64,000 nucleotides of DNA from Nemertoderma westbladi (taxonomy: Eukaryota; Animalia; Xenacoelomorpha). Position 1 is the stretch's first letter. The number at the start of each line of letters is the position of its first letter. Under the pieces are notes generated by a model. The model made no database searches. It was not told the DNA's origin and saw nothing but the letters and a program-made list of their open reading frames with translations. The DNA lies in the NCBI GenBank assembly GCA_032718475.1, contig JAUCBJ010007289.1:186001-250000 (forward strand). The letters are read 5' to 3'. Positions 3,488 to 64,000 of the stretch are shown piece by piece. The translations under genes were made by a program, and so were the position numbers.

Positions 3488-3590
3488 CTCAAGAGGTCTG
3501 TCCTTCGGCGACATCTAACTGATTTACCCACAGTGTAATTAGTTACGTAACGGAACTTATTGGGATATATATGTATATACGCGGCTCATA

Positions 3591-17424: not shown

Positions 17425-17707
17425 GAGAATGTTGTTATCGGTTTACGTAAGTAAAAAACAAAGACAGTTGAAAATATAACTGCCTCCGTAAAGACTACTA
17501 TCCATGTTTCCAATAGTATATAAACAAAGAAGTTATATACAGTTTAGTTGTTACTAGAGTTGATAGCATTGGTAGGGGCCAGTTGGAAACCCCATAGAGA
17601 AATGCAAGCAGAGTTAGTGTTATTATTGTAATTAAGTTAAAATACATGGTCATTAATAAAATTGATAGACATTAGGCTTGAATGAGTGTGGCAGGTAGTG
17701 TTGCTTG

Positions 17708-32564: not shown

Positions 32565-35105
32565 CTACCATCCCGTATCGAAATCTTTAGCGTGCTGTAT
32601 GTTAATGCTTGGTGTTTTTGTATGTATATATATAGATTGTGCTATTTTTCGATCTGGCCAGTCCTTACATTGCCGTAGAGTTAGTACTTGAAAAGGATTT
32701 TGTATTTTTAGACTATTTGGGTGTTCTGAAAGGTAATGTGATGCCATACTACTACTCGATGTGTTTCCTGATCTAACTGAATTACGATGTTTCATTGTCC
32801 TGTCCCTAACCCTAAGATATGATTCGCCTATGTACGTTTCGCCACAGATGTTACATTTAAGTTGGTAAACTATGTTCTTCTTAATACAATTTCTACAACC
32901 GTTACTGCATGTATAACAATCAGTATTAGGGGGGGCGGGGCACTTGGGTTTGTTAATGTTAGAACGTATAAGAGTATTTTTTAATTTTGGGCCGGGAATT
33001 GAGACTAATCTTACATTATTGTGGAAAGGGGAATTTGCTATAATTTTCTTTACTTTGCGTAGGATGTTATCGTTGATGAAAGGTAGTGCTAAGGGGAGAG
33101 TATCTTTATGCTGAATTGTTTTCCGGGAAGGTCCTCTCGTTACCTGATAGATTAATTTATCCACAAGAGCAACTGGAAAGTCATTATTAATCAGTGTGGT
33201 TCTTACAGAATTTAAACCTCTATTCTTACCCCCCGGGGTCGATCCGTAGTTGTTAGCTCGCTTAATAGCGTTTATCGCGGTGTTTCTGATCATATGCTTG
33301 GGATGTTTACTATAGAAGTTTAGTAGCACTCCCGCATTTGATGGCTTTACATAAAGTTCAAAGTCGATCAAACCATCGTTGTTAACTACGGTAAGGACAT
33401 CTAAAAAAGGTAATTTATAAAAAGACTTCTCCATGGTATATTTAATAGTGGAGTGGCAGGAGTTTAAATATTCCAAAAACTTATCCAGTTCATCCTCTCC
33501 GTGGCTCCACGTGGACCACCCGTCGCCAAGGAAACGGAACCAGGACTCAGGTGACAAGTGGTAGTCGTTGAGGAATATTGTTTCTTTAACGTGTATAAAG
33601 ATAATAGCGAAAGGGGCCGCTGATCGGTTCCCCATTCCCATCCCATGTGACTGCTCATAGTATTTATTTTCAAAGTGAAAATAACCTTTAGCAACAGCCA
33701 ATTGTAATAAACCATAAAAGTCAGCCATTGTAAGACCGAACATGTTCATTTCATGTTCATGTTTGGATACAAAATTTGTAACGACTTCTATACCTTCAGG
33801 AATAGGGATATTCGTGTAAAGGTTAACAATGTCCGTACTGAAAATAATATCACCCGGTTGCATTGGTGGTAATTTTCACCCTGTTCACACCCTGTTTATA
33901 AAGTCTATGGTGTTCCTTAAACGTTCTGGAACAAACTCAGCAACCTGTGTTAAAATTTGCGTAATGAGCCACGCCGGTTTCTCTAAAATAGAACCCATGC
34001 AGGGCGAAATTGGCCGCATTGGATTACCGATTTTGTGAATTTTTGGAATTCCATATAGTTCTGGAACTCGAGGTTTAACAGTTACAAATGAACCGGTTAA
34101 TGTGTCGGGCATTGATCTACACAAAATAGATTTGATGCCGGAGTTAGTCTCTGCTGTAATACGTGGGGTTGGATCGCATGGTAACACTTTATATGTGTTA
34201 GTGTCGCTAAGTATGTCGCTATGGATTTTATTGACGTAACCATTCCTGTCGAATACCGCAAAACCGCCACTCTTATCGGCTTTCTTAATAACGATGTTCT
34301 TCGACTTTGAGAGTTTATCCAGTGCTCTTCGCTCATCCGTGGTTAGGTTATCCTTATCGGGAGGGGTGAAACGACTATGATACTGGTATATTCCCAGAAT
34401 ATTAGTTTTAAGTTCGAGCAAATCTCGTTCACCCCGTGGGGTAGTTTGCTGAGGTTTACTTTTAATAACGTCCGGGAAAGGAACTCTTCCAAGAGAATTG
34501 CGTATTTGTGGGGTTGTAGGTTGCTTTGAGGTGCTGGCGGGTGTTTCTGATGGTGTTGTGGTGCTGGGTGCTACGGGTTGCGATGTGGTGGTAGGAGGTG
34601 CGGGTTGCGTTGTTGTGCTGGGTGCTGCAGGTTGCGATGTGGTGGTAGGAGGTGCGGGTTGCGTTGTTGTGCTGGGTGCTACGGGTTGCGATGTGGTGGT
34701 AGGAGGTGCGGGTTGCATTGTTGCGCTGGGTGCTGCGAGTTGCGTTGTTGTGGTTGGTGTTGGTTGCGGGGTAGTGTTGTTTGTTCTGCGTTGCAAAGAA
34801 ACCTGTCGTTGTTCTTCTATCGAATCCTTCCAGCGAATACCATAGGCGAATCGTTCTAACACTATTTCGGCATCTATCAAGACTTTGTCGTCAATTTGCC
34901 GGGTTGGAGCAAATTGCGGCCCCTTACCTAGTAGACTCTGTGTCGCAGTTGGAAGTGGTTCCGTTGTTAATATACTAACCCTAGGTTTAGACGGCAAGAT
35001 CGAAGTGTGTGTAGACGGCGAGATCGAAGTGTGAGTTCGTGCTATTGGTGTCATGCGCATGTGTAAACGTTTCAGTTTATCGCGATGTATATTTTGTAGT
35101 TTCAA
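32565..35105 (-). pseudogene. Penelope RT-GIY-YIG ORF; frameshift near 33870, catalytic DD degenerate
   Basis: KADKSGG, LYGIPKIHK..PMRPI, DIVNLYTNIP, GMGMG, RFLGDG, LPFLDV, NIVYQLKCNICGETYIGES. Confidence 0.9.
34553..34760 (-). repeat. 57-bp tandem repeat encoding a Thr/Pro-rich insert (QPAPPTTTSQPVAPSTTT)
   Basis: GGTTGCGATGTGGTGGTAGGAGGTGCGGGTTGC occurs three times. Confidence 0.85.
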
Positions 35106-35239
35106 CTGAACTTCTTCCTCTATATCCTTGCATGCTGCGTAGATCGGTTGTGTAAAACCTCTCTGAATCTAAACCTAGTATATTATGCTTAACGCAGTGA
35201 CAAGGGCACGTTCTCACTTACTAAACCGAAACAGGAAAA

Positions 35240-36272: not shown

Positions 36273-36841
36273 CGTTAGCATATTCAATTCCGCTAGCCAA
36301 CCCCATAAAGTGAGCTTTAAGCAATATTGGGAACACGAGGTTGATAGCCAATATCAACCTCGTATCACCCCAATAAAATGGGGACAAGAAAACCCAGAGG
36401 ACACACACACAATAGGGGTCAGGGGTTACATCCCTGACAGAGAGGGATTAGCAGGAGTAAAGGGAAACACTCCAGGGGAGGTGAAAGGGCGACAATTAGG
36501 TTATTAGCCAATGGGGGGAAGGCATCGGTCAAGTAATGTAACGTGGCCAACCGTGCAATATATATTACCAGTAACCGTGTAATTAATTCACTTGTAGTAA
36601 GTCAGTTAGTTAGGGCGGTACTGGAACTCTAATCACCGTCTCCGTCTGCTGTCAGCAATATATCATCATTTACCGACCGGTACACTACATCAAACATCAA
36701 CTATTTGTGCTATTATCATTTATTATATTATATCCTTGAACCTATATACACCGATCAATCAATAACTCTTTCCATCTTTTCACATACACACGGCGGGGAC
36801 GCATAGACTAGAAACCGGGATCCTCGGTGGATCCCGTCACA
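36273..36841 (+). repeat. 5' LTR of A2 (first base mutated, CG instead of TG)
   Basis: Matches 51693-52266. TATA-like ATATATATT near 36559 and TCAGT at 36602. Confidence 0.95.
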
Positions 36842-36850
36842 GTGATTAGA
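36842..36850 (+). promoter_or_regulatory. Non-tRNA PBS of A2 (GTGATTAGA), complementary to LTR site 36628-36636
   Basis: Directly follows the terminal CA; 9/9 complement TCTAATCAC lies inside the LTR. Confidence 0.65.
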
Positions 36851-43024: not shown

Positions 43025-45387
43025 TGTAAAAGCTTTTGGGGGATATAACTGGCCTTTTCCATTCGTAATCCAGTTTTCCCCCATTCGCTCAAATCCTCTA
43101 AACTGTTGCTTCTAGTGGCACAATCCGCCCGCTGGTTGGCTGATTTGCTGTACTTGTGTAGCCTCTTTGTTCCGTTCGATCAACCAATCAGAACAACAGT
43201 TGACCAATCACAGTGATAGATTACCTCTTTGTGTGTAAAATGTATACCACGAATCACATGATTCAGTAATGACGTTTTTCCCAGCTTAGAACATCATCGG
43301 CTGTGGAATGTTTCTGAATTTTCCAACATTAGAACGTCTTTAATTATAAGATCACAAAACTGTTATCTTGGTTAACTTGGCACACTACCTACCTGGTCTG
43401 GCACGGTACTGCATACTACGTGCTGTAAACTCAAACTGCTTTTCACCGCATTATTTACTGCTATTTACGGTTTGTTATTAAATGTATCATTCGTTTGCAT
43501 ATTGTTATTTGGAGAATATTGATAAACGATCAGAAACCCCAATCTTCTTGATACACTAAGGTTAGAGAGACTGGTTACATATAGCAATTGCGACATACAT
43601 TATCGTGGTTTGTAGTGAATTCAATGCTACTTAATAGGCCCTACAAATGTCGGTTGCTGTTCTCTTTATACATGATTAAAATCAGTGAATATCGGCAATT
43701 CAGTGTGCAGTGGTGTGCAATAGTCTGTATGTGCTTGACCGAGTAACAAAGCATTTCCTAAAGAATGCACCTTTTGTGATCTATAAGCCATCCCGTTGTG
43801 TATAGTGTAAGTCATAACTCTGTTTATATGGATAGAGCGCCACGTCCTAAAGAACTGCTAATATTTCCCGAAAGTGAATAATATTTGTCAGAGATTATAT
43901 ATTAACGATCAATCGAATAGTACGGTAGGCCTGCACCGCAATCAAATTAAAGCATCCGAATCCAGTCTCCCGGTTAGGTTTCTCTTTCCTTACTGTCTGT
44001 ATTACATTATAAATACGTGACTACAGTAAGATGAAATATCCGTACTAATTAAAGTACAATAAAGCTCCTACTATATTTAAGTATTATTGGTAGGCAGAGT
44101 ATTAGGAATGCAAAGTTCAGATCCTCGTGTCTCGGCTAAACCAAGCTCTGGGTAGACCTTGGAAATGACTTGCCTCTTCTCACTGACATTGCTTCGTGCG
44201 ATATTGCTCTCATACCGTATATTAAATAATACATATAGTAGCGTGATGTCCCTTTAACAGTAGCGTAAAACGCAAAATAAATATGTTAAACCCTTTGAAA
44301 ATCTGCAATTCTAGTCGATTAAGATATCGCGGCACCCACCGATATACTTGAAAGACAAAATTCTAGAATCAGTGGTTAACGTCCCCAGACAAGTTCTGGA
44401 ATAAACTGGTGCCCATCCTAAATATTAATTATTAATATTTACAAAATCTGTCAAATTTCAGATCCTTTAAAATTCTAGTCGATTAAGATATCGTAGCACT
44501 TACCGATACTCTTAAAAAAGACAAATTTCCTAGAATCAAGGATCCCAGTCCCCAGATATGTTCTGGAATAAAATTGTGTCTATTTAACATTAAATAATAA
44601 AATTGACGGGAATAAATTTAAATTCATATTTTTATTGAATTCAATAAATTGTCATTTTTATACAATTTATAACATTCCCAAAATTCCTTTAATTAATAGA
44701 TCATGGGAGCAGAGATTCACTCTATTAAGTGTATTAGTGTGCGAGAATCTCCAATATATAGTCAATAGCCGATAAAATTCATAAAATCATGTATAGAGAG
44801 GATATTGACCATTAAAGAATTACTATTAAATAGCATCCCAGATCTGTATGCATGAGAATTACCCTAATTCTACCGCTAGCTTTCCATAATGTCACCATGG
44901 CAACAACCATGCTAGAATTAGAAGTGAGTTAAAAGAACAATAGAAAGCTTGCCCCATTGAATAGCATAGGAATAAATAGCGCACTGCTAGTATCCAAGGA
45001 TACATAATAATAAAGTGACATTCTGGAAGGCACTGACTAACGGACAAATGGCCCGAATGTGTACAGTTTGTGACAGTTGTGTTGAATTTGTGCGTTTATA
45101 GGTGAATGTTACTGCTAAAGTGTGTTTACAGTAGCGAGTCGCAATTGTGAAAGTAGCCCTAACTCTCCAGAAAGAGCCTGAAGTACATCTAAGCCTTTGG
45201 GACGGACAGTGGAGTGACTTGTGCCGGTTATCGTTGTCATTGTGTAGCTACATGGCGAAAGCACAGCGACGACGGTACATCGGCGCTGAGGATCTTGCAC
45301 TGTCCGGGGGCAAAGAGGGGTAGGCAGCGACGCCCGCTAGCCTAAAATATAAACTCATTATAATATTGATAAACTCATATAGCAGAT

Positions 45388-48357
45388 ATGACTGAGTTGA
45401 TAGAAGATGATCTTGGTATCAGGGAGCGATATACTCTACCTTCTATACCTTCTATACCTTCTACCTACTATACTTGATACGAGGCGACGCTGGTCCAACT
45501 ACTACGGAGGATGATGGTTGTTATATCGAACCGCCAATGTCCCCGGAGCAACTTACGCATGAATTGGATTATAGAAAGTTCACCGCTCGCTATACGCATC
45601 GTAATGGTACGTATATGGACTTCTTAACTACTGGCCATCCTATCGATTTACACGATACAGACGATGTAGACACCGAAAGGGAAATGGTTTTATTTAAAAA
45701 TCATACCCAGCGGAGTCGGCACGATGAACCGAGAATGGAACACGAGAATTCTATTCGAAATCAACTCGAAAGATAGAACGTGGAAGAAGGCTTGTAAAGA
45801 CAAATAGAGGAGAACCACTGGAGAAGAGACATGGGTTAATGTCCTGGGTCCATAATGTGAATAGTTTTCCCCGGGGCACGGGTGCTCGCGGGCGGTCTCC
45901 TTCGGGAGGCTGTAATTTTCTCTTCCTTCATCGTTTTCCTGTAATTATTGTGATCAGTGTCACAATTAAAAGGCAAGAATGAATGATGACATGACGGAAA
46001 ACATGTCCATTGTTATATCTTATGGATACTACCATATATCCTCCCTCCTCTTTACTCCCCTTATCTCTCTATACATCGCTATTGAAAATACAACATACTT
46101 CGTCCCACCTTCTCTTCCCAACGCGCTCGGAGATTTGGGAGACGATCGACCGATCATTGCCGTATCGTGGTATTGATCATACCGCCTCTTAATAAACCTC
46201 CCATCCCTTACTATTAATCTGGATGCTTATATTGGTGTCCGCACCGCCTATCCATGTCACATTCTGTTGATATTTATGATATCAACTTCCACCCTCTCGT
46301 TGTTGATTAGAAAATCAGCCATCAATGATTTCCTTAAGTCCACAACCGTGATACAAGGACTGAAAGGACACGCGGATAGTTTGTGAACAACTGGTACCAT
46401 TATGTGTCATAAATCTGGTTGTTCACCTCCCTAATCACTAGGGATAAATTCATTTGGAGATAGTCTTAGAATGTTTGAATCCTCCTACTAAGATCGTATT
46501 TCTGAATATTTCTGAATACGACATAGGTCTTCCCCTGCTCGCTACCATCAATGGAAGACATATTAGGCATACAACAGGAACATGGAGAACATTCCATACC
46601 CTTTCGTCGATACTCAGCTGATTGCTCCCTGGGCAGAAGGCCGAGGTTTCTTCCGCACTATGTATGCCAATACACCCAGCGGCATTACTAAAGTACAACG
46701 AACCTCCATCGGGCATCTTGCCTTTCAAGAATACGGATGGAATTTCATGGTTGGAAATCCTACCAATTACCAACAAGTATATGGAGATCATTATTCTCGT
46801 TTATACTTTGATGGACCATTGACCGCACCTGGCGCCGTATATAGCTTTATGAGTGTTCCACTTCGTCCCTCCTTAGCTATATACACGATCTTTGAAAATG
46901 CAGCACTTGCCGGTTGGCTAGCCGATGTGTGCAGTCGTACCATACGCGCCCATCCCTTAATACTTGGAACCAAACTCGCCAAGTTAGATGAACACAATAA
47001 ATTCATCCGCTTCGAATGTTTCAGGCGCTTTCTGACTCCGTTCCGTAACGTTGTAAGTCAGTTCAAGGACCGCGCTCTGACCAAACTCAGCCTAAGAGAC
47101 TCAGCTGCGGAGAAGCTAAACAGCGCGGGATTTGCCCTTTTCCAGGACGTTTGTATACAGAACTTACATTCATCTGTTATACAAAGACCCCGAATACCCA
47201 CGGGTTATTCTGTCGTGGAAGTTCAGACATTGGGTCTGCTTGCGGAGACAGCCGCACCTACCTCAGCTATGCAATTGGAAGATGAACCAATATGCTTAGA
47301 ATCTGAGGCGATTCAGCCTACAGCGCCCCGGAGCAGCGATAACGACTACGTCTTAGAGTGGTATCAAGGTCCACAATGTCTCACCGCATACGATTATCGA
47401 CACGCCAACTATGTTTCTCGAAAACGTTGTCGATTATACGCATCGAGAGACCATTTCACCCCTATGGACTCAGACGTACCCTGCTCCTATTTCCACGAAC
47501 AACCGATGATGGAGATCTATTGTGCGTATTGCAGACTTAATAACTCGCACATTTTTGCAGTCTGCCCCCAATTTATGACTCAATGCCACCACTGTCAACT
47601 TAAAGGACATGCCAGTTATAATTGCCCCTTTAATCGCGATTTAGAAAGCGTAGATGAGATGATTACCCTGCGCTACATCCGGGCTTGGGAAGCGAACGCG
47701 GATTTACATTGTGAGTCCCGCCATCGCTATTACCCTGGACGCTCTTACGAGGGAGTTTACGCGTTCCATCCTTATTTATTCGCGTCTGTTGAACAAAAAA
47801 CACGCACACCGAGTTACGAACTAATGAAGCGTGTTGGTGAGTGTATTTCCACCAAATTTGTTCGAAAATATCTCAGGAACGTCAATCCTAACGATATTAC
47901 TTCATACCATTTGATCAATTTCATCCGTTAAAACCCTGAGTATGGTGATTTATTTATCAACTCGCACCCTGAGTTACAGGAAGTATCTCGATGGCCCTAC
48001 GAATATCGAGCCCGAGAACGCGAGCTGGAAAGAACCATTAAACCGAGGAAGTTTCTCACCACTCACGGTCCACCTACCGCCATTGTCCAGACGACCCGTC
48101 AAGGACCCGTAGGAGCTGCTGTCCTAAGACGCGCCCTAAAGGCCGTTAGACCTCGCTCCACTGAAGTTGATATCGATCAACCAGGTACTTCGACCGGCGG
48201 ATACACCGATCGTAATCCCAAACCTTCTGATGCAATTGTATTGCACTCTTCACCCAGGAGTTACAGCCCTCCTAGTAAAGTGGCTCGCCCCAAAGAGAAA
48301 AGGACTCTTGCTAGCCTCAAAAAACTGCGTAAATGCCGTCCGCGTAAGAAAGACTAA
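45388..48357 (+). pseudogene. Family B accessory gene in B2 (start, central domain, CCHC domain, tail); longest open piece 46582-47931
   Basis: PYPFVDTQLIAPWA matches PRPFVDTKLLLLWA; LADVCSRTIRAHPLILG..RRFLTPF matches LADIVARVLKHHPLVFG..KRFLTPF; CAYC..H..C, CHHC..GH..C and AWEANADLH follow. Confidence 0.85.
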
Positions 48358-48435: not shown

Positions 48436-49616
48436 TGTAAAAGCTTTTGCGGAATTAGCCGGTTATTTTCCCCGTAGAGTACTCTGTAGTTGGTTTAACA
48501 GGCACAAAAGGCTGTATCCTTACTGTACTGGTGTTTTAGTTGACATAAAAGGCCATTTCTTCTGTATGTGTACTTTAGCGGACATAATTAGCAATTCTAT
48601 GTCGCAATAAACTAAATCCTCTTGAAACAGTGTAGTTACTATGATGACAGCTAACAGCTGAGCTGTACACGTGTAGCTTTTCCTTGTTCTCTGGTGTTTC
48701 TTTGTTCGGTCAACCAATCAGAGCGATTCTCCTGCTTTTGTACAGAAACCTCCGAGAAATCGCGCAATGCATTATGGGTCAATGTTTACATTTTTGTCCT
48801 GAGCCCAGAAGACCGGCTTTGGAATCTCTGTGTTTTCAGTCTTTAGCCCAACATTAGTAGGCTTAATTATAGAATTTATATCTGTTATCAAACCAATTCA
48901 TACCATACCAAATCACATATCATAACCATTTATACCTTAACATTTGTACTGCTATTTACTGTCGGTTATTCATTATATCAGTTGATGGAATATTATTATT
49001 ATTTGGAATACCGATAAATAATTACAAAACCCTCAATCTTCTTGATATACTGAAGGTAAGAGAGACCGGTTACATATAACGATTGCGACTTACATTAAAG
49101 TGGTTTTGAAGTGAATCTAATGCTATTTCATAGGCACTACATGTATTGGTTGTTGTTCTCATTATATGTGACTAAAATTAGTGAAGGTCGGCAGATCGGT
49201 GTGCAGCATTGTGCAGTATTGTGTATGATTGTGATGGATAACAAAGCATCTCCTAAAGAATGCGCCATATACGTGAATTCATAGCCATCCCGTTGTGTCT
49301 AGTTTAAGTCATAACTCTGTTTACATATTTAGAACGCCACGTCCTAAAGGAACTGTTAATATTTCCCGAAAGTGAATAATATTTGTCAGAGATTATATAT
49401 TACAATCAGTCGAATAATACAGTAGGCCTACACTGCAATAAGGTTAGGCTTCCGAATCCAGTCTCCCGGGTATATCCAGCGGGTGAATGGTCGCGCATAG
49501 ACTGGCTTCGGCTAATGTAGTGTATCAAATACTCGTCATAGGCTAAAGACGATTTATTATCTAGAAGACATCCAAATTTGGCAGGTTAAACTGCTAAAGG
49601 TCTAAAAGCGCGAACA
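48436..49616 (+). repeat. Family B 3' LTR (B2)
   Basis: GGGAGCGG|TGTAAAAGC...GCGCGAACA; closest to 52395-53563. Confidence 0.92.
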
Positions 49617-50997
49617 GAGGAGGAAGCTAGGGCACAGAGCTACGGCTTCGAGGAACAGGCGGCCTTAGACGAACTTCGTTGGACCTCATCAGGGAGTTCG
49701 GGGGAGTCTCTAGGGCGAGAACTAGGATGGACGGTGGGATCACCAAAACAGTCGACGTCGGGATTGCAGACGACGCCCATACCAGCGGGCGCCGAGGGCG
49801 ACCAGCTGCTAAGGAGGCTAGGGGAGCTAGAAGGATGGAAAGTTACGGGCGAGAACCAAGGCGGGAAGGGACATAGTGGGTCCACTGGGATACCGGGGTT
49901 GGAGCCACTGCCAGAGGAGGACGAGGACGACGACGAGTTCAGAGAGATGCCGCCCATCGGGAGGATCGGCCACTCAGACACGGACTGGGTTGGCGGGAGG
50001 GTGGTGACGGCCAGTGGGGCGAGGGCCTTCTGGGATAGACCCGACAAGCGGGCCTGGGTGCATGAGGAGCCGGCGATGGATTTCGCGGGGAGCACCATCA
50101 GGTTGGGCGAGCAACCGGGGACGGCACCACAGGTAGTATTCGGGGAGACGATCCCTGGGAGGGGTGATGAGATCGATGTAGACAGGGACGCTAACGTCCG
50201 GAAGTTCGCTTACCCACAGACCGCGGAGATCGCTTGGGACGAAAGACGACGTGGGGCAGGAGACATTGGTGCTCGGCTGTGACTACTGTGGGAGGCAGAC
50301 CCATCAGGAAAGGAGCTGTTTGTACCGGTTCCAGAAAGGGACTAGTTGTCTCTACTACCGCGAGTCGAGCCACAGGATGGGGGCGTGTCCACGGTTGCAT
50401 AACCGATGTTCGAAGTGTAACTTTCGGGGACATTACAGACGCCAGTGCGACTGGATGGACGACGAAGAGAAGTTTAGGGTCTTTGAGGAGTGGGCCGACG
50501 TCGGGGCCATGACTCGGCAACGCATGAAGGCCCAGGAGTTCCGGTGGGGCTTCTTTAACATCAATCAGGAGGCCCACATGGAGATTATCAAACGGAGGCT
50601 TCCGTTTACCTACCAGGAAGTGGCGACGGCGGCGTCATATGCTGGAGTGATAAATACGCAGAGGTATTTGGATAGGTGGACGCCACAGAACAGAGGAGAG
50701 TTCAGGGACTTCTTGGCGGAGCATGTGCCGCGGGCAATGAAAATGATCCCATGGGACGCCACCAGGGGGAGACAGCAGGGCCACTCGGAGGGGCCACCCG
50801 CGAAGCGATACCGGGAGCTAATAACACCGGCACCCAAGGAGTCGACGACCGGGATCAGTAAGGAGGTGGTGGCGAGAGTCCGAAGCCAGAAAGCAGACAA
50901 GACCAAAGGAGCGGCAGTGACCAGGAAACGACCAAGGGAGGAGGATGACAGAGGGAGAGACTTGAGGTGGTTCCCAAAGGCTGGTGGAACGAACTAA
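49617..50997 (+). pseudogene. A2 accessory ORF, 3' portion, frameshift near 50215
   Basis: Close homolog of 2-1360 with a short deletion and Cys loss in knuckle 2. Confidence 0.88.
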
Positions 50998-51692: not shown

Positions 51693-52266
51693 TGTTAGCG
51701 TATTCAATTCCGCTAGCCAACCCCATAAAGTGAGCTTTAAGCAATATTGGGAACACGAGGTTGATAGCCAATATCAACCTCGTATCACCCCAATAAAATG
51801 GGGACAAGAAAACCCAGTGGACACACACACAATAGGGGTCATGGGTTACATCCCTGAGAGAGAGGGAATAGCAGGAGTAAAGTTAAACACTCCAGGGCAG
51901 GTGAAAGGGCGACAATTAGGTTATTAGCCAATGGGGGGAAGGCATCGGTCAAGTAATGTAACGCGGCCAACCGTGCAATATATATTACCAGTAACCGTGT
52001 AATTCATTCACTTGTAGTAAGTCAGTTAGTTAGGGCAGTACCGGAACTCTAATCACCGTCTCCGTCTGCTGTCAGCAATATATCATCATTTACCGGTACA
52101 CTACATCAAACATCAATAATTCGCGCTATTATCATTTATTATATTATATCCTTGAACCTATATACACCGATCAATCAATAACTCTTTCCATCTTTTCACA
52201 TACACACGGCGGGGACGCGTAGACTAGAAACCGGATAAACCGGGATCCTCGGTGGATCCCGTCACA
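51693..52266 (+). repeat. 3' LTR of A2
   Basis: PPT GGGGGGGGAG, then TGTTAGC...GTCACA, then TSD CCACT. Confidence 0.95.
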
Positions 52267-52394: not shown

Positions 52395-53563
52395 TGTAAA
52401 GGCTTTTGCGGAATTAACCGGTTATTTTCCCCGTAAAGTACTCTGTAGTTGGTTTAACAGGCATAAAAGGCCTTGTCCTTACTGTACTGTTGTTTTAGAG
52501 GACATAAAAGCCATTTCTTCTGTATGTGTACTTTAACGGACATAATTAGTAATTCTATGACGCAATACGCCAGATCCTCTTGAAACAGTGTAGCTACCAT
52601 GACGACGGCTAACAGCTGATGCTGTACACGTGGAGCTTGTTCTTTGTTCTCTGTTCCTTCTTTGTTCGGTCGACCAATCAGAGCGTTTTTTGGCTCTGTG
52701 TTGGAGATTGTATATAGAAACTCGTGGAGTTGAGTCAGTATGTGATTTTATCCACAGCCTACAACACCGGCTTTGGAACCTCCGTGTTTCAGTCTTTAGC
52801 CCAACATTAGTAGGCTTAATTATAGAACGTATATCTGTTATCATACAAACTGATCATAACATCACTGCATTCATAACCATTCACACCTTAAGCTTTGTAC
52901 TGCTATTTACTGTCGGTTATTCATTATATTTGTTGATGGAATATTATATTTGGAATACTGATAAATAATCAGACACCCCAATCTTCTTGATATACTAAAG
53001 GTTAGAGAGACCGGTTACATATAACGATTGCGACTTACATTAAGTGGTTTGAAGTGAATCTAATGCTATTTTATAGGCCCTAAATGTATTGTCTGTTGTT
53101 CTCTTTATATGTGACTAAATTTAGTGAAGGTCGGCAGATTAGTGTGCAGCATTGTGCAGTATTGTGTATGATTGTGACTGATAACAAAGCATCTCCTAAG
53201 GGAATGCGCCATATACGTGAATCTATAGCCATCCCGTTGTGTCTAGTTTAAGTCATAACTCTGTTTACATATTTAGAGCGCCACGTCCTAAAGGAACTGT
53301 TAATATTTCCCGAAAGTGAATAATATTTGTCAGAGATTATATATATTAATGATCAGTCGAATAATACAGTAGGCCTACCCCGCAATACGGTTAGGCTTCC
53401 GAATCCAGTCTCCCGGGTATATCCAGCGGGTGAATGATCGCGCATAGACTGGCTTCGGCTAATGTAGTGTATCAAATACTTGTCATAGGCTAAAGACGAT
53501 CTATTATCTAGAAGACATCCCAATTTGGCAGGTTAAACTGCTAAAGGTCTGAAAGCGCGAACA
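52395..53563 (+). repeat. 5' LTR of B3
   Basis: TGTAAAGGC...GCGCGAACA. Confidence 0.93.
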
Positions 53564-53575
53564 ATAACAGATATA
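53564..53575 (+). promoter_or_regulatory. Non-tRNA PBS of B3 (ATAACAGATATA), complementary to LTR site 52830-52841
   Basis: Directly follows the terminal CA; 12/12 complement TATATCTGTTAT. Confidence 0.72.
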
Positions 53576-53908
53576 AAGTTCGGATTGCAGGGTAGGCAAT
53601 AAATACAGTTTAATATTGTTCTGGTAAGAACAATAACAGATATAGCTTCTGTATTGCAGTAGGCAATAAAGCTGAAGTACCGGCAACCGGTACCCAGTAG
53701 GCCTGAATACCTAACCAACTGGACCGGTACCTACAGCAGTACAGGTACAGCAGTATTATTCGATTGTGAAATTGTATACCGGTAGGCTGTTTAAGAGATT
53801 AGGGACTGTATACCCCTTGTTTCTTTTGGAGCTTACTTATTTCTGTCAGTTTTATTTATTTGTAGGCCAGTATTGAGCAGAAGGCGTGTAAGCCTGCTCA
53901 GATTGTAC

Positions 53909-54480
53909 AGACAATTTGTAGGCTGGACTGTTGTCTGACTGTTGTTAAGTCTGAAGGGACTGTAGTGTGTGTAGAGCATATGTCTGAAAAAGTACTAGTT
54001 AGGAAAGTAGGGGCTGCCAGTGCTGTGAGGTGAACCCCCTCGAAAGAATAAGTCGTACTACTCGGTTAGAACGCATACTAACTAACCATTTCGGAGTCTG
54101 CATATACTGTAGTTTATTTGGGCTTGATAGTAGTCTGCCAGCGTTTGGTCTGTACTTTGTTTGTGTAGTTTGTACGGGTAGCGTAATATTTCTTATTTAG
54201 ATAATTTGTAGGCTGGATTTTGTCTGGCTGTTGTTAGGTCTTGAGAGATTTCGGTGTGTGTAGATTGTATGTCCGATAAAGTGCCAGTTGGGAACGTAGG
54301 GGCTTCCAGAGCTGTGAGGTAAACCCCCTCGAAAGAATAAGTCGTACTACTCGGTTAGAACGCATACTAACTAACCATTTCGGAGTCTGCATATACCGTA
54401 GTTTGTTTGGGCTTGATAGTAGTCTGTCAGTATTTGGTCTGCATTTTGTTTGAGTAGTCTGTACGCGTAGCATAATATTT
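53909..54480. repeat. About 290-bp tandem duplication in the B3 leader (single copy in B1)
   Basis: AATTTGTAGGCTGGA...CGAAAGAATAAGTCGTACTACTCGGTTAGAACGCATACTAACTAACC occurs twice. Confidence 0.9.
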
Positions 54481-55426
54481 ATTATTCAGAGTTTATGCGA
54501 TTATTCGCAACATTCATATCCCCAAGTTAATTCCTACAGTAATTGTGCTTGTTATATATACCGTTATAGTTAAACTAACCCCGGTACTACATCAGGGCTG
54601 CTTGGCATAGGTAAAGACTGGTGATTTTGTGCCCCGGTCACTCCAGCAGATACCGTGGTTCTTTTAGCTGTTCAAGTATTTTTAACTACTGATTATTTGT
54701 TGTACAAGTACTTGTACCTAATTTAGGGTTTAGTGTACAGTGCTTTCCGAAGGCAATTGGTGTGTAGGCAGTATATTTGTGTTGTAAAGTGGTTAATAGG
54801 CACGTTGGTTCTGGTAGACCGCGGTAATTAACTTCTAGGTAGGAACACTCCGTGATACATAACGTAGTACTTATAGCGATACGGCTATAAGTCGTCAGAC
54901 GGTGGTATTTTTCTATCTGGACAACGCAGTATATTTACTACTACTTATTATTTTCAAATACCGTAGTACCCTGTCCGTTGTAATAACCAGATATTCTAAC
55001 CCTTTGTTAGACTGGTTTGTAGATTCCCTGTAAAATTACCCTAAAAATTTGTACTTGTAATTGTTGTGTTTATTTAGAGATTGTAATCTCACCCAGAATT
55101 GTACGTAATTTGTAGTATTAAGTAACTTAGGTAAATTATAATTATTTGTTTTAGTGTCCAACAAGTAACACTTCACTGAGAGCGCACAGCTTCTGTGTAG
55201 TGACTCCCCCCAGAAATAATAACATTTATTTCAAATATTGACAAAACCCATTTTAACGGGTATATATATTATAAATCAACTCAAACGATTTATAAATAGT
55301 AGGCCTGCCATACATCAATTAGGTCTAAATATCAGTTGGACTACTGCTCAAATAACGGTAATAAAGTAAGTAAAGTAACCAAGTAACCCCTAAAAATCAG
55401 AAATTCAATTATTTAAAATAATTGAC

Positions 55427-55804: not shown

Positions 55805-58800
55805 ATGTCTGACACAAAGCAAAACCTGTCAGACAGTCTCCTAGATACAACCATATGTGACCCAGACAGGAGTGTGGAACGAGTAGGACCGAAGTTCAAC
55901 TCACCTCCTACTGTAAGAAAGATCATCCCTCCCGTAGTAATATCAGACCCTAGGCTAGTCCAACATCGTAGGTCTATCATAGGCACTCGAGCTCAGGTCA
56001 AGCGGGACCAAGAAGCAGCGGAACCGCAACAACCCGCTAGCCAAGAACTTATTTCTCAACGGCCCGACAGCTCCAGTAGTGAGGATACTGTAGAGCTGAC
56101 ACCCGAGCGCTTAGCAAAGATGACAGGTGCGGTTTATTCGGATCCCCTTCTCATCCTTCCTGCAGCCGTACTCACTAGGTTATTGATTGCGGTGGAAGAA
56201 CACCAGATCGATTAGGCGAGAAATAAGCGATCGACTAAAGATAGTTATGCGGGATACACAAGGGAAGAACTGAAGTCTATTGTCGAGTCGCAATGGAACT
56301 TCCCCGGACCCAGACTCCCGTTTGATTTATCAGAAGCTGCCTGGGAAGACATACACAGGATGGGAGTAACCAAGGAAACCATCGATCCAGCTGTGTGGAA
56401 GAGGTCCACAGCCGGATACGTACAAGGATTCTTCAGCTCCATGGAGCGATTAGAAAAACAACTGTTTCAACAACCCCAAGGACCTCAGGAGCAGGGACAG
56501 CTGCTTTATCAAGTTAGAGAAAGAATTCTACGAATCAGGCTAATCTTATCGGCCTTTGAGGAGGCTTCTAAAAGAAGACAAGACACGTCGTTGCAAGTTG
56601 CCGTAAAGACTTGGTTTCAACGGGTGAGCCTCCAGGTGCAAGGAACGGCTCAGTGGAAAGCCCAGCTGGATGAGCGCTCAACCCATGGAGAATCAACAGA
56701 CGCTACTTTTTCCCAAGTGGAAAGTGAAGCGACGGCAGAGAAACCGTATAAGAGGGATGCCATTGACATCTATCTGTCAGACTATCAACGTTTTTTAGGT
56801 GATGAAGAGTTGAGGAGAAGGCTAAATGGACTTAGCCCTAATAGTGAAGGAGCCAAGCTTGTGTTGGACGCAATCGATGTGGATAGGTTAGCTGCGAACC
56901 AAGCTAAATTTGATGAAAGCATCCTCATCGCTAAGGTTCAAGAAGAACAAGTAATGAAAAAACGTATAGAAGATAGAAAGACAGCGGCAGTGGCAGCAGC
57001 AGGGGCAGCGGCAGAAGCGGAAAGAAAAGCGGCAGCAGCAGTGGCAGCGGCAGAAGCAGAAAGAAAAGCGGCAGTGGCAGTGGCAGCGGCCGAAGTGGAA
57101 AGAAAGGCGGCAGTGGCAGCAGCAGAGGCAGTGGCAGAAGCAGAACGGAGAGCATCTGAAGAGACAACCCAACTAGAGTTGGAAAATCTTCAAGAGAGGC
57201 AAGACAACTTCAATAAACAGTTAACAGCTAGTCAAATGCAGATGATGAGGCGATCTACTCCCAAGAGGCAGGGATATACATCATCTGAGGAAGGCGATAC
57301 CACCGATCCTGAAGGCGGAGGAAATAGATCTCGTCTAAGCAGACGTAGAAGAACATCCCACCGTCAGAAATTGCCTGATTTGCCCCCAGCTGTTAGAAGG
57401 CAACTAAATAACACAAACTTAGGTAGTACAGAGCCCACAGACCAAATAATTAAGAAAGACTCCCTACTATAGTAGATGAGCCTGAAATAATTAGGCCTGT
57501 TCTCGAAGCCACCTCTTCGATGATAGAGACACCTGTACTCCCTGAACCTACCTCTAAATTCCCTCTGCACAGCACGAAGCTACCTGTGCCCCACAGAACC
57601 ACCCCTGAAATTGTTCATGTCCTGGACTCCGAGCGAAATATTCATGATTTGTCGCCCGTTGTCCCTCGTCTGCCCGCTACAACGTTGGCGCCTCCCGTTT
57701 CGGCGGTCGAATGGGTAGATGAGGGACGACGGGAGATGGGTCTCCTGCTCGGACAGCTGAGGGAACAACATTCTTGCTCCTCTCAGCAGGCCCAGGAGAT
57801 GGAAGGAACTGTGCAGCAGTTAAAGGGAACGATTAGAGAGAGTAGGTTAGAGTTGCAAGAAGTGCAGCAAAGTATCGCTTTTGAACGCGATAAATTAGTA
57901 AATACACAAAAGGGTATACCACCAACCCCGGTAACAATGTGTCAACCTGTTAGGTCTGAAGTATTTCATGCGCAAGGTGTGGAGCCTACACGCATATATA
58001 CTGCTAGCGAAGTAGAAACTCCTATAGTGAACCCTATTAAGGGTAATTATAGACCTGTTGATAATGATATTCCCTATAGACCTGATCATAATCCGAGAAA
58101 TTTATATACCGATAACTCGATATTAAATAACACGATGGCCCAAGAAAGTTTTACGCGTCAAATGGCTAGAACTGAAGCCCATCAAGCGGTAAAGGTGGGA
58201 GAGATAGTCAAGTTCAATGGAGATGAGATGAAATGGTTACCTTTTAATGAATATTATAAAGATAACATACAGAACTCTGTACTATCTAATGGAGAGAAAC
58301 TTAGATTCCTCATCGAGTGCTTGGAAGGATCTCCCAAGTTAATGGCGTTAAAGTTTATTGGACATCCAGACGGATTAAGACAAGTTTGGGATACACTAAA
58401 CATCAGGTATGGTAATAGGAATAACATAGCTAAATATTTGTATGCAAAATTAGTAGCGCCCCGAAAGTTCATCAGCAGCGGGATAATAGAGTTTTCCAAT
58501 GAGATTCAAGAGATCTGTAGACAATTAGATTGGTTAGGTAAATCTCATGAATATCAGAGTTCTATGGTTATTGGAGCCATGGCTTCTACTTTACCGAAGG
58601 GTGGAGTAGGTACACGCTGGGATAAGAAAGTGTTATATATGATGGAACAACAACGACGAGACCCTACCATGGCTGATCTCATGTCATTCTTAGATGGAGA
58701 AGTGAAATTACAGCTCCTAAAACAGTCCAGAGAGAAGACACCGGAAAACAAGGTAAGTGAGAAACCCGTTTCTAGGAGAAAGGTAACACCTGTGTGTTAT

Positions 58801-61678
58801 ACAGACGACAGCGAAAGCCAGACTTCTCAAGGAGAGGATAGCGGGAAAGACACTGAAAGATCTTATTATGTCAATAAAATGCCTAAAGAACAGGTAAGTA
58901 AATTCAAGTCTCGAAACAATGACAGGAGAGAACAGGTAAGAAAAACTCCTCCTACGTCTCCTAAGAGAATTCAGGTGAGAAAGCCCGAAGAAAGAATGAG
59001 TGTGCACAATGTTATTCAAAATAAGGTAAGTAACATCAAACCGAAATGTGCGCTATGTGACAGGACCCACCGTTTGAATATGTGTGATGAATTCCTGAAG
59101 AAATCATTAACGGAGAGAAGGGAAGTCATGTGGGATAAGCGGTTGTGTTATAATTGCCTCAGACAAGGACACCAACGGCGAACCTGTTACTCCGACACAA
59201 GGTGTGCAAAGTGTGGTGCGAAACATCATATCTTGTTACACACTGAATTTGAGCGAAACAGCCACCAGAGTCAGGTAAGTGATTCCGAACTACATGTCCA
59301 ATTAAGTGATGTGAACGACACTGACCAAAGTTCTGAGATGGAAGGATTCTATACAGATGAATTCTCTGACGAAGGTGAATCCTGTTACATGATAAATACC
59401 GCAGTGTATCGAGCACTTACGTATGAAAAAGACACAGACAGCGACCTCACCCTAACTACTTCTGATCGACAACCATCTTGGAAAGCGCCACCTTCCAATG
59501 TAGGAATCCGAGAATTTCCTGTAGTACAGGTAAGGGTCCACGGACCTAAAAGGAGTTATGTAGTGAACACCCTCCTTGACTCCGGTAGTAAGGAACATTC
59601 ATCGACAAAGAACTAGCCGAAGACATCTTTGCTGGACAACCCAAGCAAAATATGTCAGGAATTATGCAGGTTTGGAAATCTACAGTAATAGCGGATTATT
59701 ATGTAGGTGCGTTGTCCACCCCCCAGGATGAACTAGGAGAACATAGTATAAGGTCAGTAAAAATGGTGGCGATAAAGAACTTCGCTACCACCCAAGTGGA
59801 ACCTTATAACTGGGATGAGGACGATTTCACCCAGCAGCTGGAAATACCTAGATTCAACACCGATTACCCTGGAGTGCAAATACTCATCGGTCAAAACGCG
59901 CATGAAGCGCTCGAGACATTGGAGAAAGGCCTGCTCAACCGCAACCACTACAAGCTTATGCGGGAAGAACTAGAGAGGGTTGGTACTTTACTTGCCCTTC
60001 CCGTAGAACTCTCATGGAAAGATTACCGAAAGATCAGGTATATCAGGTAAGAGAATGGGAAGTTGAGAGCAGTGAGTTAGACGATCCAACTGAGGGAAAA
60101 CCATACTCCTCAGATAATGACGATGTCCACCAACTTTTCGATGAGGAGAATACCATCGATCTCCTTAAGGAAAACGAGACTTGGCAAAACCAAGTGAACT
60201 TATGTCAGCTCCTTCTTCCATCAGAGCAAGACGACTATAACGACGAGCTTAATGACGTCATTGAACGTTATAATGCCAAGACTCGGGATGAACACGCCGT
60301 ACGATTCTTTACTCAAGAGGCTGTAGAGCCCAATTCCTACGATAAGGCCCTATCGGTAGAGGAAGAAAGAGCCAAGCAGATCCAAGAGACAACTACACGT
60401 TTTCTTAAAGATCAAGGTAGATATGAGATCGGTCTACCTTTCCGAAAGCGAGAACCAAAGTTCGTAAACAACAGACCCTTGGCGGAGAAAAGAATTGCTC
60501 AACTACATCGACGCCTTACGGCAAATTCTTCAGCTAAAGAAATGTATCAAACGCAGTTGAAGAAATTTATTAGCAAGGGATATGCGGAACTAGTACCGAA
60601 AGAAACACCTATAACTGAGAGAACGTATTATTTAACTCACCATTATGTTCCCAAACCCGGTAAACCCCATGAGGTACGAGTGGTGTTTGACGGCTCCGCC
60701 CTCTATATGGGCCAATCCCTTAATTCTGAATTGTTACCCGGACCCAACTTACTCCAATCCTTGTTGGGAATACTCTTAAGATTAAGACAATATTCAATCG
60801 CTTTCGCCTCAGATATAGAAGGCATGTTCTTACAAGTCAAGGCGCTGGATAGGGATCGAGATAGCCTACGATTTCTGTGGTGGCCTGAAGGAGACCTCAA
60901 CCAGAAACCGGTGGAGTACTGGATGACCATCCAGGCTTTTGGGATAATCTCAAGCCCTTCAAACGCCTGTTCAGTGGTGCGCACCACTGCGGATGACAAC
61001 CAAGACGCCTTCTCTAAAGAGGTGATTGACAACATCAAGCGGGATATATACATGGATGACAATCTAAAGTCCCTTCCATCAGTCGAAGAAGCCATTGACG
61101 TCGCTAAAGGAACGGTAGAGTGCTTAAAAAGAGGTGGATTTCGATTAACTAAATTCACCAGCAACTCCCGTGAGTTTCTGGAGTCGATCCCGGTAGAAGA
61201 TCGAGGAGCGAAAGACCTGGATCTAATAAAAGATGATCTCCCAGAAACTAAGACCCTTGGTTTGAAATGGGAAACAGAAAGAGATATCCTGTTTTTCCAA
61301 CTAAAACAGCGAGATAATCCAGTTCGGACTAAACGGATTTGTTTAAGTATCCTGAGCACTTATTTCGATCCATTGGGATTTATTAGCCCAGTTATATTGA
61401 TTGCTCGGAGTTTAGTACAACAAATGTGGCTTGTAAACCACTCATGGGACGATCCACTTAAGGGAGAATTATTAAAGAAGTGGATGAAATGGGAAGATTC
61501 CCTACCAGCCATCGAGAACTTTATAATTTCCCGTTCATATTTTGGTCATGTTCTCCCTACGTATTCCTATCAACTCCATGTGTTTGGAGACGCCAGCGAT
61601 ATGGGAATAGGTATAGTAGCCTACCTAAGGGTGGAAACTCCGGACGGAATCAAAGTCGCCTTGGTTACCTCTAAGGCA
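55805..61678 (+). pseudogene. B3 gag-pol: N-terminal extension, DUF1759-like gag, triple Cys/His, protease, RT, RNase H start
   Basis: KFNGDEMKWLPF, CALC..H..C, CYNC..GH..C, CAKC..HH..LH, LLDSGS, VRVVFDGS, DIEGMFLQV, IYMDD, FDPLGFISP, LHVFGDAS. One stop at 56213 and several frameshifts. Confidence 0.95.
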
Positions 61679-61682
61679 TTAA

Positions 61683-62667
61683 CCCTATTAGTACCGGGCT
61701 ATAAAATGTTGTACAAATACCGGGAGGGGGTCATATTGACCCCCCCCCCCCCCCCCCTCTAAAATCTACAAATATTTACGAAAACGTCTGATTTTTTGTT
61801 TGTACGTAGGTATCACTTGTCTGGATTCGACCGAAAAAAAAAATTTCGAAAAAAATGTACTGGTGTGGTTATATTGCAGCACCAAAATTACAAGTAGTGC
61901 ACAATTTTCACCAAATTTGAAAGTTACATTTTCGGCTAATTACTTTTCAATACAGGTTTTCTGGGGTGCAAAATACATTGGAAAATATTTAAAAATGATA
62001 TGATTACTATAAATGGCTGTTTAGTCCTCTCTGCGTAGGAAAAAAATGAAAAAAACAAGTAACCAGCACTTTTCAGTTAGAACACAAAATTTTTAATTCA
62101 CTTATACGATGCTATAAATTCACATTTTCAGGTTTTCGAGGGCGCTGATTCTAATGGAATACATTTCTAATATGCCAGATCATTGCTACTTGTATTTTTC
62201 GGCGTTTTTTGGCAAATTTTGGTGCTAGCACCAAATTTCGTACCCATCACCAAAATGTACAAGTTTGCGATGTCCAGTGCTGTTTTTATTGATTCCATCG
62301 GTTTCAGGACCCTCATAAACCCGTATAACGCAAGAAACAAGGTGATACTATCTACTTATCAATTTGCATATTTTCCAAAATTTGGTGCTGGCACAACAAT
62401 TTTCACCTACCGGCGAAAAATACCATTTTGAGAACACTTATGAGATTTTTACTGATTCCATTGAATTCAGAACCATCACAAACCCATATAACGCAAGAAA
62501 CAAGGTGACACAATCAATTGATATATTTGATGGTTTTCAAAATTTGGTGCTAGCACCACATTTTGCACCCACATCCGAAAAATACAAGTTTGAGATGTCT
62601 AGTTCGATAATTATATTTTCCATTGAATTCAGAACAGCCATAAACCTCTAAAACCCAAGAAATAAGT
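61683..62667. mobile_element. piggyBac-like non-coding end or MITE
   Basis: TTAA|CCCT terminus, subterminal palindrome GGGGGTCA-TAT-TGACCCCC and AT-rich body. The other end is not in the window. Confidence 0.6.
62214..62667. repeat. About 163-bp tandem repeat, about three units, with palindrome TTTGGTGCTAGCACCAAA
   Basis: Units start near 62214, 62377 and 62539, sharing AAACCC(G/A)TATAACGCAAGAAACAAGGTGA. Confidence 0.85.
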
Positions 62668-64000
62668 TGTTGTGGGAGCGCTAGAGAGTCGTCCCTCTAG
62701 CCTTCCAACTTCTTATATTATATCAAAAGGTTATATATATAATGATATCGTGTAATGAAACAATATAGGCCGTTAGGTACCGGTAGGTATGTGACAGCAG
62801 TATATATATATGAACTCAATGTTGATCTAGTTGCTAGGAAACCCCCGCAGTTGCCACAGAGATCAACCAATCAAAAACACGGGTTATCAGTGACCATTAG
62901 CCCCGAAGGGGCAGTCCGCTACACCACCCCCCCTAGTGATAAACCCAAGGTGTTTTGGTTCCTGTAAAACGTGTGGGCTGTTGTGAAACGCGTCCAGATC
63001 GAGTTGTTACGGCGGGTCGCGGTTGAACAGTTTGTTCCGGTGTACAGGGTGGGTTTTGGGTGGTGGTATCCACCAGGGTGGGTGTGTCGTCCACGAAAGC
63101 TTGCTTCAGGCGGTCGACAGAGACGTTGGTCGAACGACCGTTGACAGACAGTGTGTAAAACTTGTCCGCCCGTGCCAGAACGCGGAAGGGGCCGTTGTAC
63201 TGACACTGCAGAGGGCCTTTGTGGGCGTCATGGCGGACAAAGACGTTGTCCGTTCGCAGCAGGTCAGGCGGGACGTGTGTGTGGCGGTGTTCCTGGCCAT
63301 GGCTGGTCGTTGGTGTTGCGCGAAGGCGGCGCATCGAGTTCCTGAGGCCAGTGATAAACTCGCCGTGGTCGGGACAAGTGTCGCTCGAGAGTTCGGAGGA
63401 TGAGAAGAACTCTCCGGGGAGGCGAATCGTTGTCCCGTAGAGGAGTTCGGCTGATGTGCAGCCGAGGTCTTCTTTCGGGGTAGTCCGTATCCCGAGGAGG
63501 ACAATCGGGAGTTCATCCACCCAGTTCGGGCCGCGGAGGCGAGCTTTAAGGGACGCCTTAAGCTGCCGGTGGAATCGTTCCACGATGCCATTGGACTGTG
63601 GGTGGTAGGCTGTGGTGTGGTGGGCGTGGGAGCCGAGCAACTCGTTGAGGGAGGCCCACAGTTCGGACGTAAACTGGGATCCACGGTCCGACGAGATGTG
63701 TGCCGGGACGCCATAGTGGGCCACCCAATGGGCGAGCAGTGCACGGGCGCAGGAGATAGTGGTGGAGTCAGCCATTGGGACGGCCGTGGGCCATCGGGTG
63801 AATCGGTCTACAATGGTAAACAAGTAACAGGCGCCTTGAGAAGGAGGAAGGGGACCCACGATGTCGACTTGGATCTTCTCAAAGCGTCTGTCTGGGGTTT
63901 CAAAACGTTCGAGTGGGGCGGAGACGTGGCGCTGAGTTTTAGCCCGCTGGCAACCGACGCACTCCTTGGCCCACTTCCCGACATCGCGGTGTAAACCGTG
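62668..64000 (-). mobile_element. Ty3/Gypsy LTR retrotransposon, 3' part
   Basis: Integrase ORF, PPT AGGGGGGGTGG (62924-62934) and LTR TGTAGCGG...CACAACA (62668-62923). Confidence 0.9.
62933..64000 (-). CDS. Gypsy integrase (CsRn1-like), 5'-partial
   Basis: WAKECVGCQ (HHCC end), VDIVGPLPPSQG, IVDRFTRWP, SDRGSQFTS, YHPQSNGIVERFH, NGPFRV, TTRSGR. Confidence 0.93.
   Translation of the reverse strand, partial: HGLHRDVGKWAKECVGCQRAKTQRHVSAPLERFETPDRRFEKIQVDIVGPLPPSQGACYLFTIVDRFTRWPTAVPMADSTTISCARALLAHWVAHYGVPAHISSDRGSQFTSELWASLNELLGSHAHHTTAYHPQSNGIVERFHRQLKASLKARLRGPNWVDELPIVLLGIRTTPKEDLGCTSAELLYGTTIRLPGEFFSSSELSSDTCPDHGEFITGLRNSMRRLRATPTTSHGQEHRHTHVPPDLLRTDNVFVRHDAHKGPLQCQYNGPFRVLARADKFYTLSVNGRSTNVSVDRLKQAFVDDTPTLVDTTTQNPPCTPEQTVQPRPAVTTRSGRVSQQPTRFTGTKTPWVYH

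Follow-up and report, generated by a model that had tools for sequence, protein, structure and literature searches.

The closest described parallels to the elements analysed here are LTR retrotransposons that prime reverse transcription with their own RNA. In Tf1 the mRNA's first 11 bases anneal to the PBS and are freed by RNase H (cited passages of PMC7175516), and self-priming is described for the wider Tf1/sushi group (cited part of PMC4600332). Outside that group it has been predicted in plants for the Gypsy lineage Tcn1 and the Copia lineages TAR/Houba/Osr-1 (relevant section of PMC6317226). Which came first, self-priming or tRNA priming, is a question raised in PMC3601003, in the portion cited here. 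For the BEL/Pao superfamily the ICTV description of Belpaoviridae gives an 18-nt PBS that pairs with the 3' end of tRNA-Arg or tRNA-Gly and an element length of 4.2-10 kb (PMC8742986).

An earlier sequence-only reading of a stretch of DNA from Nemertoderma westbladi had proposed that a BEL/Pao family, which we call B, is primed by its own LTR RNA. Its two premises from the literature, that BEL/Pao elements are usually described as tRNA-primed and that Tf1 uses its first 11 mRNA bases with RNase H release, agree with the ICTV text and the Tf1 passages cited above. In the open-access literature that was searched we found no paper on self-priming or on a splice-junction primer in BEL/Pao. In four BEL/Pao papers (PMC3118150, PMC554778, PMC6238403, PMC8556966) the available main text mentions neither PBS nor tRNA, and in the available parts of three other papers (PMC8220671, PMC5443660, PMC6934838) self-priming is not tied to BEL/Pao.

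Family B belongs to BEL/Pao

The window, meaning the whole stretch that was analysed, comprises 64,000 nt of Nemertoderma westbladi (GCA_032718475.1, contig JAUCBJ010007289.1, 186,001-250,000, forward strand). Self-comparison and alignment showed it to be a nest of transposons with five family-B LTRs, belonging to copies B3 (5'), B1 (5' and 3') and B2 (5' and 3'). The features of these copies are as follows.

52395-53563, plus strand: B3 5' LTR, 1169 nt, TG..CA
57454-59616, plus strand: B3 gag-region ORF with DUF1759 (PF03564)
59906-61762, plus strand: B3 pol ORF with RT, the start of RNase H, and Peptidase_A17 (PF05380)
31897-30667, minus strand: B1 5' LTR, 98.5% identical to the B1 3' LTR, TSD GCTCC
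21246-19990, minus strand: B1 3' LTR, primer site kept at 20823-20813
43025-43976, plus strand: B2 5' LTR, truncated before U5/PBS, variant site 43356-43366
48436-49616, plus strand: B2 3' LTR, site 48875-48888

All family-B copies in the window are broken. B3 is truncated within RNase H, near 61730, by unrelated sequence, and B1 (11.9 kb, with an extra 3' ORF) has lost RT/RNase H to an internal deletion. B2 lies nested within a second BEL/Pao family, A, and is likely a chimera, since its flanks give no TSD with 43025. The LTRs of B3 and B1 are only 81% identical.

Membership of family B in BEL/Pao (Belpaoviridae) rests on its proteins. B3 carries the Pao-type domains DUF1759 and Peptidase_A17 (E 4.8e-11 and 6.6e-28), and corals, echinoderms, molluscs, amphioxus and fish have Peptidase_A17-bearing proteins that show about 40% identity to its pol; on these domains and this homology the family is BEL/Pao. 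It also has TG..CA LTRs, the TSD GCTCC and a PPT, and in B1 the integrase-region homology comes after the protease region, in keeping with an integrase downstream of RT/RNase H. Membership in Tf1/sushi (Ty3/Gypsy chromoviruses) is ruled out by the Pao-type domains. No relatives were found among viral contigs.

Several other features were noted in the window. The most conserved block of the long B LTR is 53235-53470 (plus strand), with an inverted repeat pairing about 53399-53412 with 53447-53459; contig depth over B peaks at this block, and it has no Rfam match. A wider Rfam search of B3 (52395-54500) returned two matches, both far below the gathering score, and no ribozyme or known RNA. Among the neighbours of B, a broken RT ORF followed by a GIY-YIG-like C-terminus (32565-35168, minus strand) looks Penelope-like by eye, its two pieces having no Pfam match; a LINE-type endonuclease-RT lies in two frames at 14253-17442 (minus strand), and an rve integrase ORF of another element at 62933-64000 (minus strand).

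The PBS of family B is complementary to its own LTR

The sequence immediately after each intact B 5' LTR was compared with the LTR itself, giving the following features.

53564-53575, plus strand: B3 PBS, 12 nt, offset 0 from the LTR end, no TGG
52830-52841, plus strand: B3 candidate self-primer, 12 nt, ending AT as in 4 of 32 scored elements
30666-30656, minus strand: B1 PBS, 11 nt, two matched changes relative to B3
31483-31473, minus strand: B1 candidate self-primer, 11 nt
53633-53644, plus strand: second B3 PBS copy, 12 nt, within a local duplication of about 70 nt

The complementarities put forward in the sequence-only reading are exact at these coordinates, over 12 nt in B3 and 11 nt in B1. 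As it had also stated, no TGG tRNA-type PBS follows the 5' LTR of B3 or B1, and the same is true of family A. The other B LTRs retain the site, again as reported: the B2 3' site (48875-48888) pairs with the B3 PBS over 14 nt, and the B2 5' site ends at 43366. The fifth B LTR, the B1 3' LTR, which that reading had left out, keeps it at 20823-20813.

Two of the shared 11 positions differ between B3 and B1, and at both of them the two partners are altered so that the pairs stay Watson-Crick. Cross-pairing is poor: the B1 LTR with the B3 PBS, and the B3 LTR with the B1 PBS, reach only 8 and 9 nt, and at other places. The claim of compensatory changes stands as far as the two matched differences go, in a covariation that within the window consists of two copies, while its implication of two selected mutations is not required. 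In the standard scheme of LTR replication, plus-strand synthesis copies the primer into the PBS in every cycle. The matched changes need not be two selected mutations, because a single LTR change can be written into the PBS; such rewriting is itself what priming predicts.

Matches of this length were rare in controls. Dinucleotide shuffles of the LTR reached the observed match in 10 of 5000 trials for B3 and 18 of 5000 for B1, an empirical window-wide null gave 9 of 17948 and 16 of 17932 positions, respectively, and the flanks of 3' LTRs, used as controls, matched over at most 5 nt. Contigs from the same organism (runs X1, X2 and X3) include B copies without the second PBS copy (joint 53558>53628). 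Among the variants listed, they also include B PBSs with T at positions 8-10, the form expected from the B2 5' LTR site; these are unphased with the LTR site.

In most relatives the complement spans a predicted splice junction

We aligned B3 pol with 44 homologues and from these obtained 98 relative loci, 80 from metagenomes and 18 from genome bins, which are probably host DNA in those assemblies. The 18 genome-bin contigs (L081-L098) lie in bacterial bins and encode animal-type BEL/Pao pol, several with full LTRs; since the pol is of animal type, they are likely host contamination. A repeat pair was inspected in 26 of the 98 loci, and the 20 with a usable LTR end were kept. Six (L016, L039, L041, L068, L074 and L096) were left out for an unclear LTR end, and most other loci contained too little LTR.

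Direct matches between LTR and PBS were short in most relatives, yet they often started right after a pyrimidine tract and YAG. A donor-acceptor pair search found that the PBS complement runs on into the bases before a GTAAG/GTGAG-type donor, 67-451 nt upstream. Elements were then scored with canonical splice sites and PBS offsets of 0-5, the donor set and the offset limit having been chosen after the first donor-acceptor search. Under this rule the LTR of the element itself pairs with its PBS over at least 10 bp in 18 of 23 elements (16 of the 20 curated relatives, B3 and B1), compared with 2 of 498 non-cognate PBS-LTR pairs. For each of the 18, shuffled PBSs reached the score in 0-7 of 1000 trials. 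Only 3 of the 16 paired relatives match directly; in the other 13 the pairing appears only across the predicted junction of a GT-AG intron in the LTR. Such a complement could not be produced by DNA inversion, whereas a spliced RNA primer would be expected to leave the complement of an exon-exon junction adjoining the LTR end.

The sequence-only reading had named covariation between PBS and LTR site in a larger set of copies as a test. At the level of relatives, PBS and LTR agree in the 16 of 20 above, and L083 and L084 (88% pol identity) differ at three bases of exon 1, each matched by a change in the PBS base opposite.

Five elements scored below 10 bp: family A (9), L086, L054, L043 and L057. 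L086 has a junction with one mismatch (score 8), while in L043 and L057 the LTR end falls at the contig end. L054 is the only scored relative with a clear TGG tRNA-type PBS (405-430), behind a short LTR of 171 nt; we take this PBS to resemble an initiator-tRNA site.

Blind scans of the other loci added 13 spliced families and one direct one, L043. Together, the 35 scored loci fall into 29 families when grouped at 90% pol identity; 25 of these are spliced and 4 are direct. The scans gave sense-strand hits in 24 loci (9786 sites), compared with a background of 4 antisense hits in 2 loci (9590 sites); five of the sense-strand junctions were not at the LTR end. We also considered, and rejected, an intron within the B primer, the best spliced scores being 7 (B3) and 0 (B1) versus direct scores of 12 and 11.

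Shared anatomy and phylogeny

The relatives selected at 10 bp or more, together with B3, B1 and A, make up 32 scored elements. The duplex is 11 bp long in 21 of them, 10 bp in 4 and 12 bp in 4, and the primer ends in AC in 24 and in AT in 4; B3 and B1 fit this pattern of length and end. The PBS partner begins 0-5 nt past the terminal CA in all 32, and none has TGG in the first six PBS bases.

Of 19 LTRs, 13 have a poly(A) hexamer downstream of the site and 2 have one upstream; neither B3 nor B1 has one close to the site. Since the hexamer is mostly downstream, the primer site probably lies in the transcribed R region. The distance from site to LTR end is 722-806 nt in B versus 45-205 nt in the other 17 LTRs measured.

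An IQ-TREE phylogeny was built from 35 rows (one per scored family, L054 and four unscored neighbours), all of them contig sequences, and rooted at the midpoint with no outgroup. The four direct relatives (L043, L052, L059 and L087) are scattered among spliced ones, with L043 sister to the spliced L047 at 100/100 support, and a quick tree of 93 rows agrees. The simple reading of this distribution would be repeated intron loss. B3 sits on a long branch in a set of seven rows with the spliced L072 and L078 and the TGG-type L054. Family B is an intron-less form with an uninterrupted primer site, which may have lost such an intron or never had one.

Family A and a third family

The same arrangement recurs in weaker form in family A, which the sequence-only reading did not mention.

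36273-36841, plus strand: family A 5' LTR, TSD CCACT, partner LTR 51693-52266
36628-36636, plus strand: family A candidate primer, 9 nt
36842-36850, plus strand: family A PBS (9 nt, lacking TGG), the reverse complement of 36628-36636

The 9-nt match was reached by 39 of 5000 shuffles. Among the matches listed, seven contigs in X1 and seven in X3 depart from the reference directly after 36850, the ninth PBS base. A diverged family-A 3' LTR, A' (2070-2605, plus strand; 77% identity to A), has its own PBS outside the window, and its equivalent of the primer site has three differences from that of A, each of them a transition. A PBS of the form that the A' LTR predicts was not among the contig matches listed, nor was any site or PBS variant, in unitigs that break at variants.

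A third family is represented by a 3' LTR starting at 7807 (plus strand), where a PPT ending like that of B is followed by TG, with CCAAT and TATA words; it has no 5' LTR or PBS within the window. An additional sense ORF is present in B, A and this third family; it lies upstream of the 3' LTR and contains Cys/His knuckle-like motifs in tandem. The extra ORFs in the window are:

46567-47931, plus strand: extra sense ORF, Cys/His knuckle-like
3543-7229, plus strand: extra sense ORF, Cys/His knuckle-like
2-1360, plus strand: extra sense ORF, Cys/His knuckle-like
49617-50997, plus strand: extra sense ORF, Cys/His knuckle-like

The B2 and third-family proteins are 23% identical (E 3e-32), and the A protein matches weakly. 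These proteins have no Pfam match and no counterpart in the 98 relative loci, and the 454-aa B2 protein has no homologue among near-length proteins and no usable atlas match. As a guess, the ORF could possibly encode an RNA-binding accessory protein.

Candidate transcription start and predicted RNA folding of family B

Two groups of motifs lie upstream of the B3 site.

52674-52739, plus strand: B3 candidate promoter series, with CCAAT at 52674, TATATA at 52711 and an Inr-like TCAGT at 52735; the TATA is not kept in B1
52801-52810, plus strand: 10-nt motif about 20-30 nt upstream of the primer site, kept in the four B LTRs tested (B3 5', B1 5', B2 5' and B2 3')

The promoter series suggests a B3 transcript start near 52737, about 90 nt upstream of the site. 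Since CCAAT, TATATA and TCAGT would place the start there, the B primer may not be the exact 5' end of the RNA, unlike that of Tf1. The sequence-only reading had drawn attention to a TATA-like word about 10 nt upstream of the B3 site; the word is present in B3 and is not conserved in B1. In a motif scan a TATA box about 30 nt ahead of the primer turned up in only 2 of the 32 elements, which does not support a transcript beginning at the primer as in Tf1.

ViennaRNA gave primer:PBS pair probabilities of 0-0.07 in B3 and B1, where local hairpins at U5 and in the leader compete; the B1 duplex amounts to -9.5 kcal/mol. For family A the probability was 0, 0.99 or 0.02 depending on the assumed start. 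In B3, B1 and A, hairpins lie just before the PBS, in U5, and just after it, in the leader (about 53542-53563, 53614-53635, 30650-30626 on the minus strand, and 36816-36835); by analogy they may be counterparts of the U5-IR type stems known from self-primed and retroviral RNAs. Priming in B may depend on a protein chaperone, on additional splicing or on a primer provided in trans.

Proposed mechanism and alternatives

The best explanation of these data, as the sequence-only reading had proposed, is that family B primes minus-strand DNA with its own LTR RNA, independently of tRNA. The pattern holds across the clade, and we place the probability at about 0.8, a figure that covers self-derived priming in general. 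The position of the PBS, its length, its co-variation with the LTR site and, in relatives, its complementarity across predicted splice junctions are direct observations. The B transcript would start at or upstream of the site, which would anneal to the PBS; a cut at the 3' end of the site, made by the RNase H of the element if Tf1 is a guide, would free a 3'-OH for extension into minus-strand DNA. Plus-strand synthesis would later copy the primer into the PBS, so that site and PBS would co-vary. In most relatives the primer is split in the DNA by a GT-AG intron, and its halves would be joined when the host splices the 5' LTR copy. The intron would persist if strong-stop DNA copies only the part downstream of the primer and the rest of the LTR comes from the unspliced 3' LTR; splicing of the 3' LTR copy as well would give intron-less forms such as L043, L052, L059 and L087. 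Comparison of these sequences makes it reasonably probable that in a large BEL/Pao lineage of aquatic animals a spliceosome-built 11-nt primer has replaced the tRNA, that splicing licenses reverse transcription while the unspliced 3' copy transmits the intron, and that intron-less families such as B recur through splicing of the 3' copy.

One possibility within this explanation is that the primer acts in trans, as a separate short or spliced LTR transcript derived from solo LTRs, from read-out of the 3' LTR or from a small-RNA pathway. It could be speculated that this suits the long loop of B and its weak predicted intramolecular pairing; the very many LTR copies of the family could supply such primers, and an intron kept by unspliced genomic RNA would be explained too. 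Trans priming would still be tRNA-independent, and perhaps a quarter of the figure given above belongs to it. It is nevertheless the unlikely form, as the PBS follows the LTR of its own copy rather than a pool (B3 versus B1, L083 versus L084), the loop is short (45-205 nt) in most relatives, and for Tf1 the cited part of 10.1101/2022.12.06.519325 describes a structure of three duplexes formed by the element's own 5' UTR. Another possibility is that the pairing is a structural or regulatory long-range contact, for instance a switch between translation and packaging or an aid to strand transfer, and that some other primer is used. Long-range leader contacts are common in LTR elements and hairpins flank the B PBS; however, a partner placed 0-5 nt past the terminal CA in 32 of 32 elements, with a modal length of 11 and an AC/AT end, makes this improbable. 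The absence of TGG from the first six bases in all 32 likewise leaves no other primer site at the position that defines the LTR end.

Priming by a host tRNA, a half-tRNA or another small host RNA, with the LTR match secondary or fortuitous, would agree with the tRNA-Arg or tRNA-Gly assigned to Belpaoviridae (PMC8742986), with the half-tRNA priming of Copia lineages (cited section of PMC6317226) and with the TGG PBS of L054. We think it quite improbable: the 3' end of a mature tRNA requires the TGG that is absent here, the two positions that distinguish the PBS of B3 from that of B1 change together with the LTRs, and at least 29 families have different PBSs each fitting its own LTR, which is not expected from a fixed host primer. 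ARAGORN detected no tRNA gene in the window or in the 98 loci. It is very improbable that self-priming should give way to a chance inverted repeat in AT-rich DNA, or to a relic of inversion or gene conversion with no present role. The match is indeed short and AT-rich, the B1 duplex is weak and the window copies are all broken, but the shuffle and empirical nulls are about 0.001-0.004 per copy. At the level of the clade, such a reading is already largely refuted by the 18 of 23 own-LTR pairings against 2 of 498, and by junction-spanning complements that DNA inversion cannot make.

Implications and comparison with known systems

If true, self-priming would alter the description of a main LTR superfamily, with self-complementary PBSs in B, A and at least 29 related families. 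It would also be an independent case beyond Tf1/sushi and the predicted Copia elements, and would bear on the order in which self-priming and tRNA priming arose. The splice-junction form would make a direct link between RNA processing and the onset of reverse transcription, and would show a way for an LTR element to retain an intron through an RNA cycle. Such elements would presumably be immune to control of priming by tRNA fragments, and programs that need a tRNA PBS to recognise LTR elements would overlook them or score them wrongly. L054 should be useful for mapping switches of priming mode.

Like Tf1/Tf2 of Schizosaccharomyces pombe, Tj1 of S. japonicus and the Tf1/sushi group, as the cited passages describe them, the elements studied here lack a tRNA PBS and have a PBS adjoining the LTR and complementary to their own LTR RNA; the 11-base primer of Tf1 equals the modal duplex of 11 bp. 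They differ in that Tf1/sushi elements are Ty3/Gypsy chromoviruses, whereas those here are BEL/Pao, and in that most relatives have an intron-split primer, a feature not described for Tf1/sushi in the text cited. Compared with the three-duplex "pretzel" of Tf1, B has hairpins in U5 and the leader, but the primer:PBS duplex is not favoured in its folds.

Tcn1 and TAR/Houba/Osr-1 resemble our elements in that self-priming was deduced from sequence alone and outside fission yeast, to judge from the cited text; these predictions indicate that self-priming can arise in more than one superfamily. On the other hand, they are not BEL/Pao, and that text has no splice-junction primer.

With Belpaoviridae as described by the ICTV, family B shares TG..CA LTRs of about 1.2 kb, a 5-bp TSD, a short PPT, a DUF1759 gag, an animal host and the order protease-RT-RNase H-integrase. 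It departs from that description in two respects: its PBS and those of its relatives are 9-15 nt long, without TGG and complementary to their own LTR, in contrast to an 18-nt tRNA PBS, and B1 reaches 11.9 kb with an extra 3' ORF against 4.2-10 kb. We read the missing tRNA-type PBS as a gap in the family description and not as exclusion of B from BEL/Pao. What we have here is thus likely a known mechanism, self-priming, in a superfamily described as tRNA-primed, and the primer built by splicing is its most surprising part.
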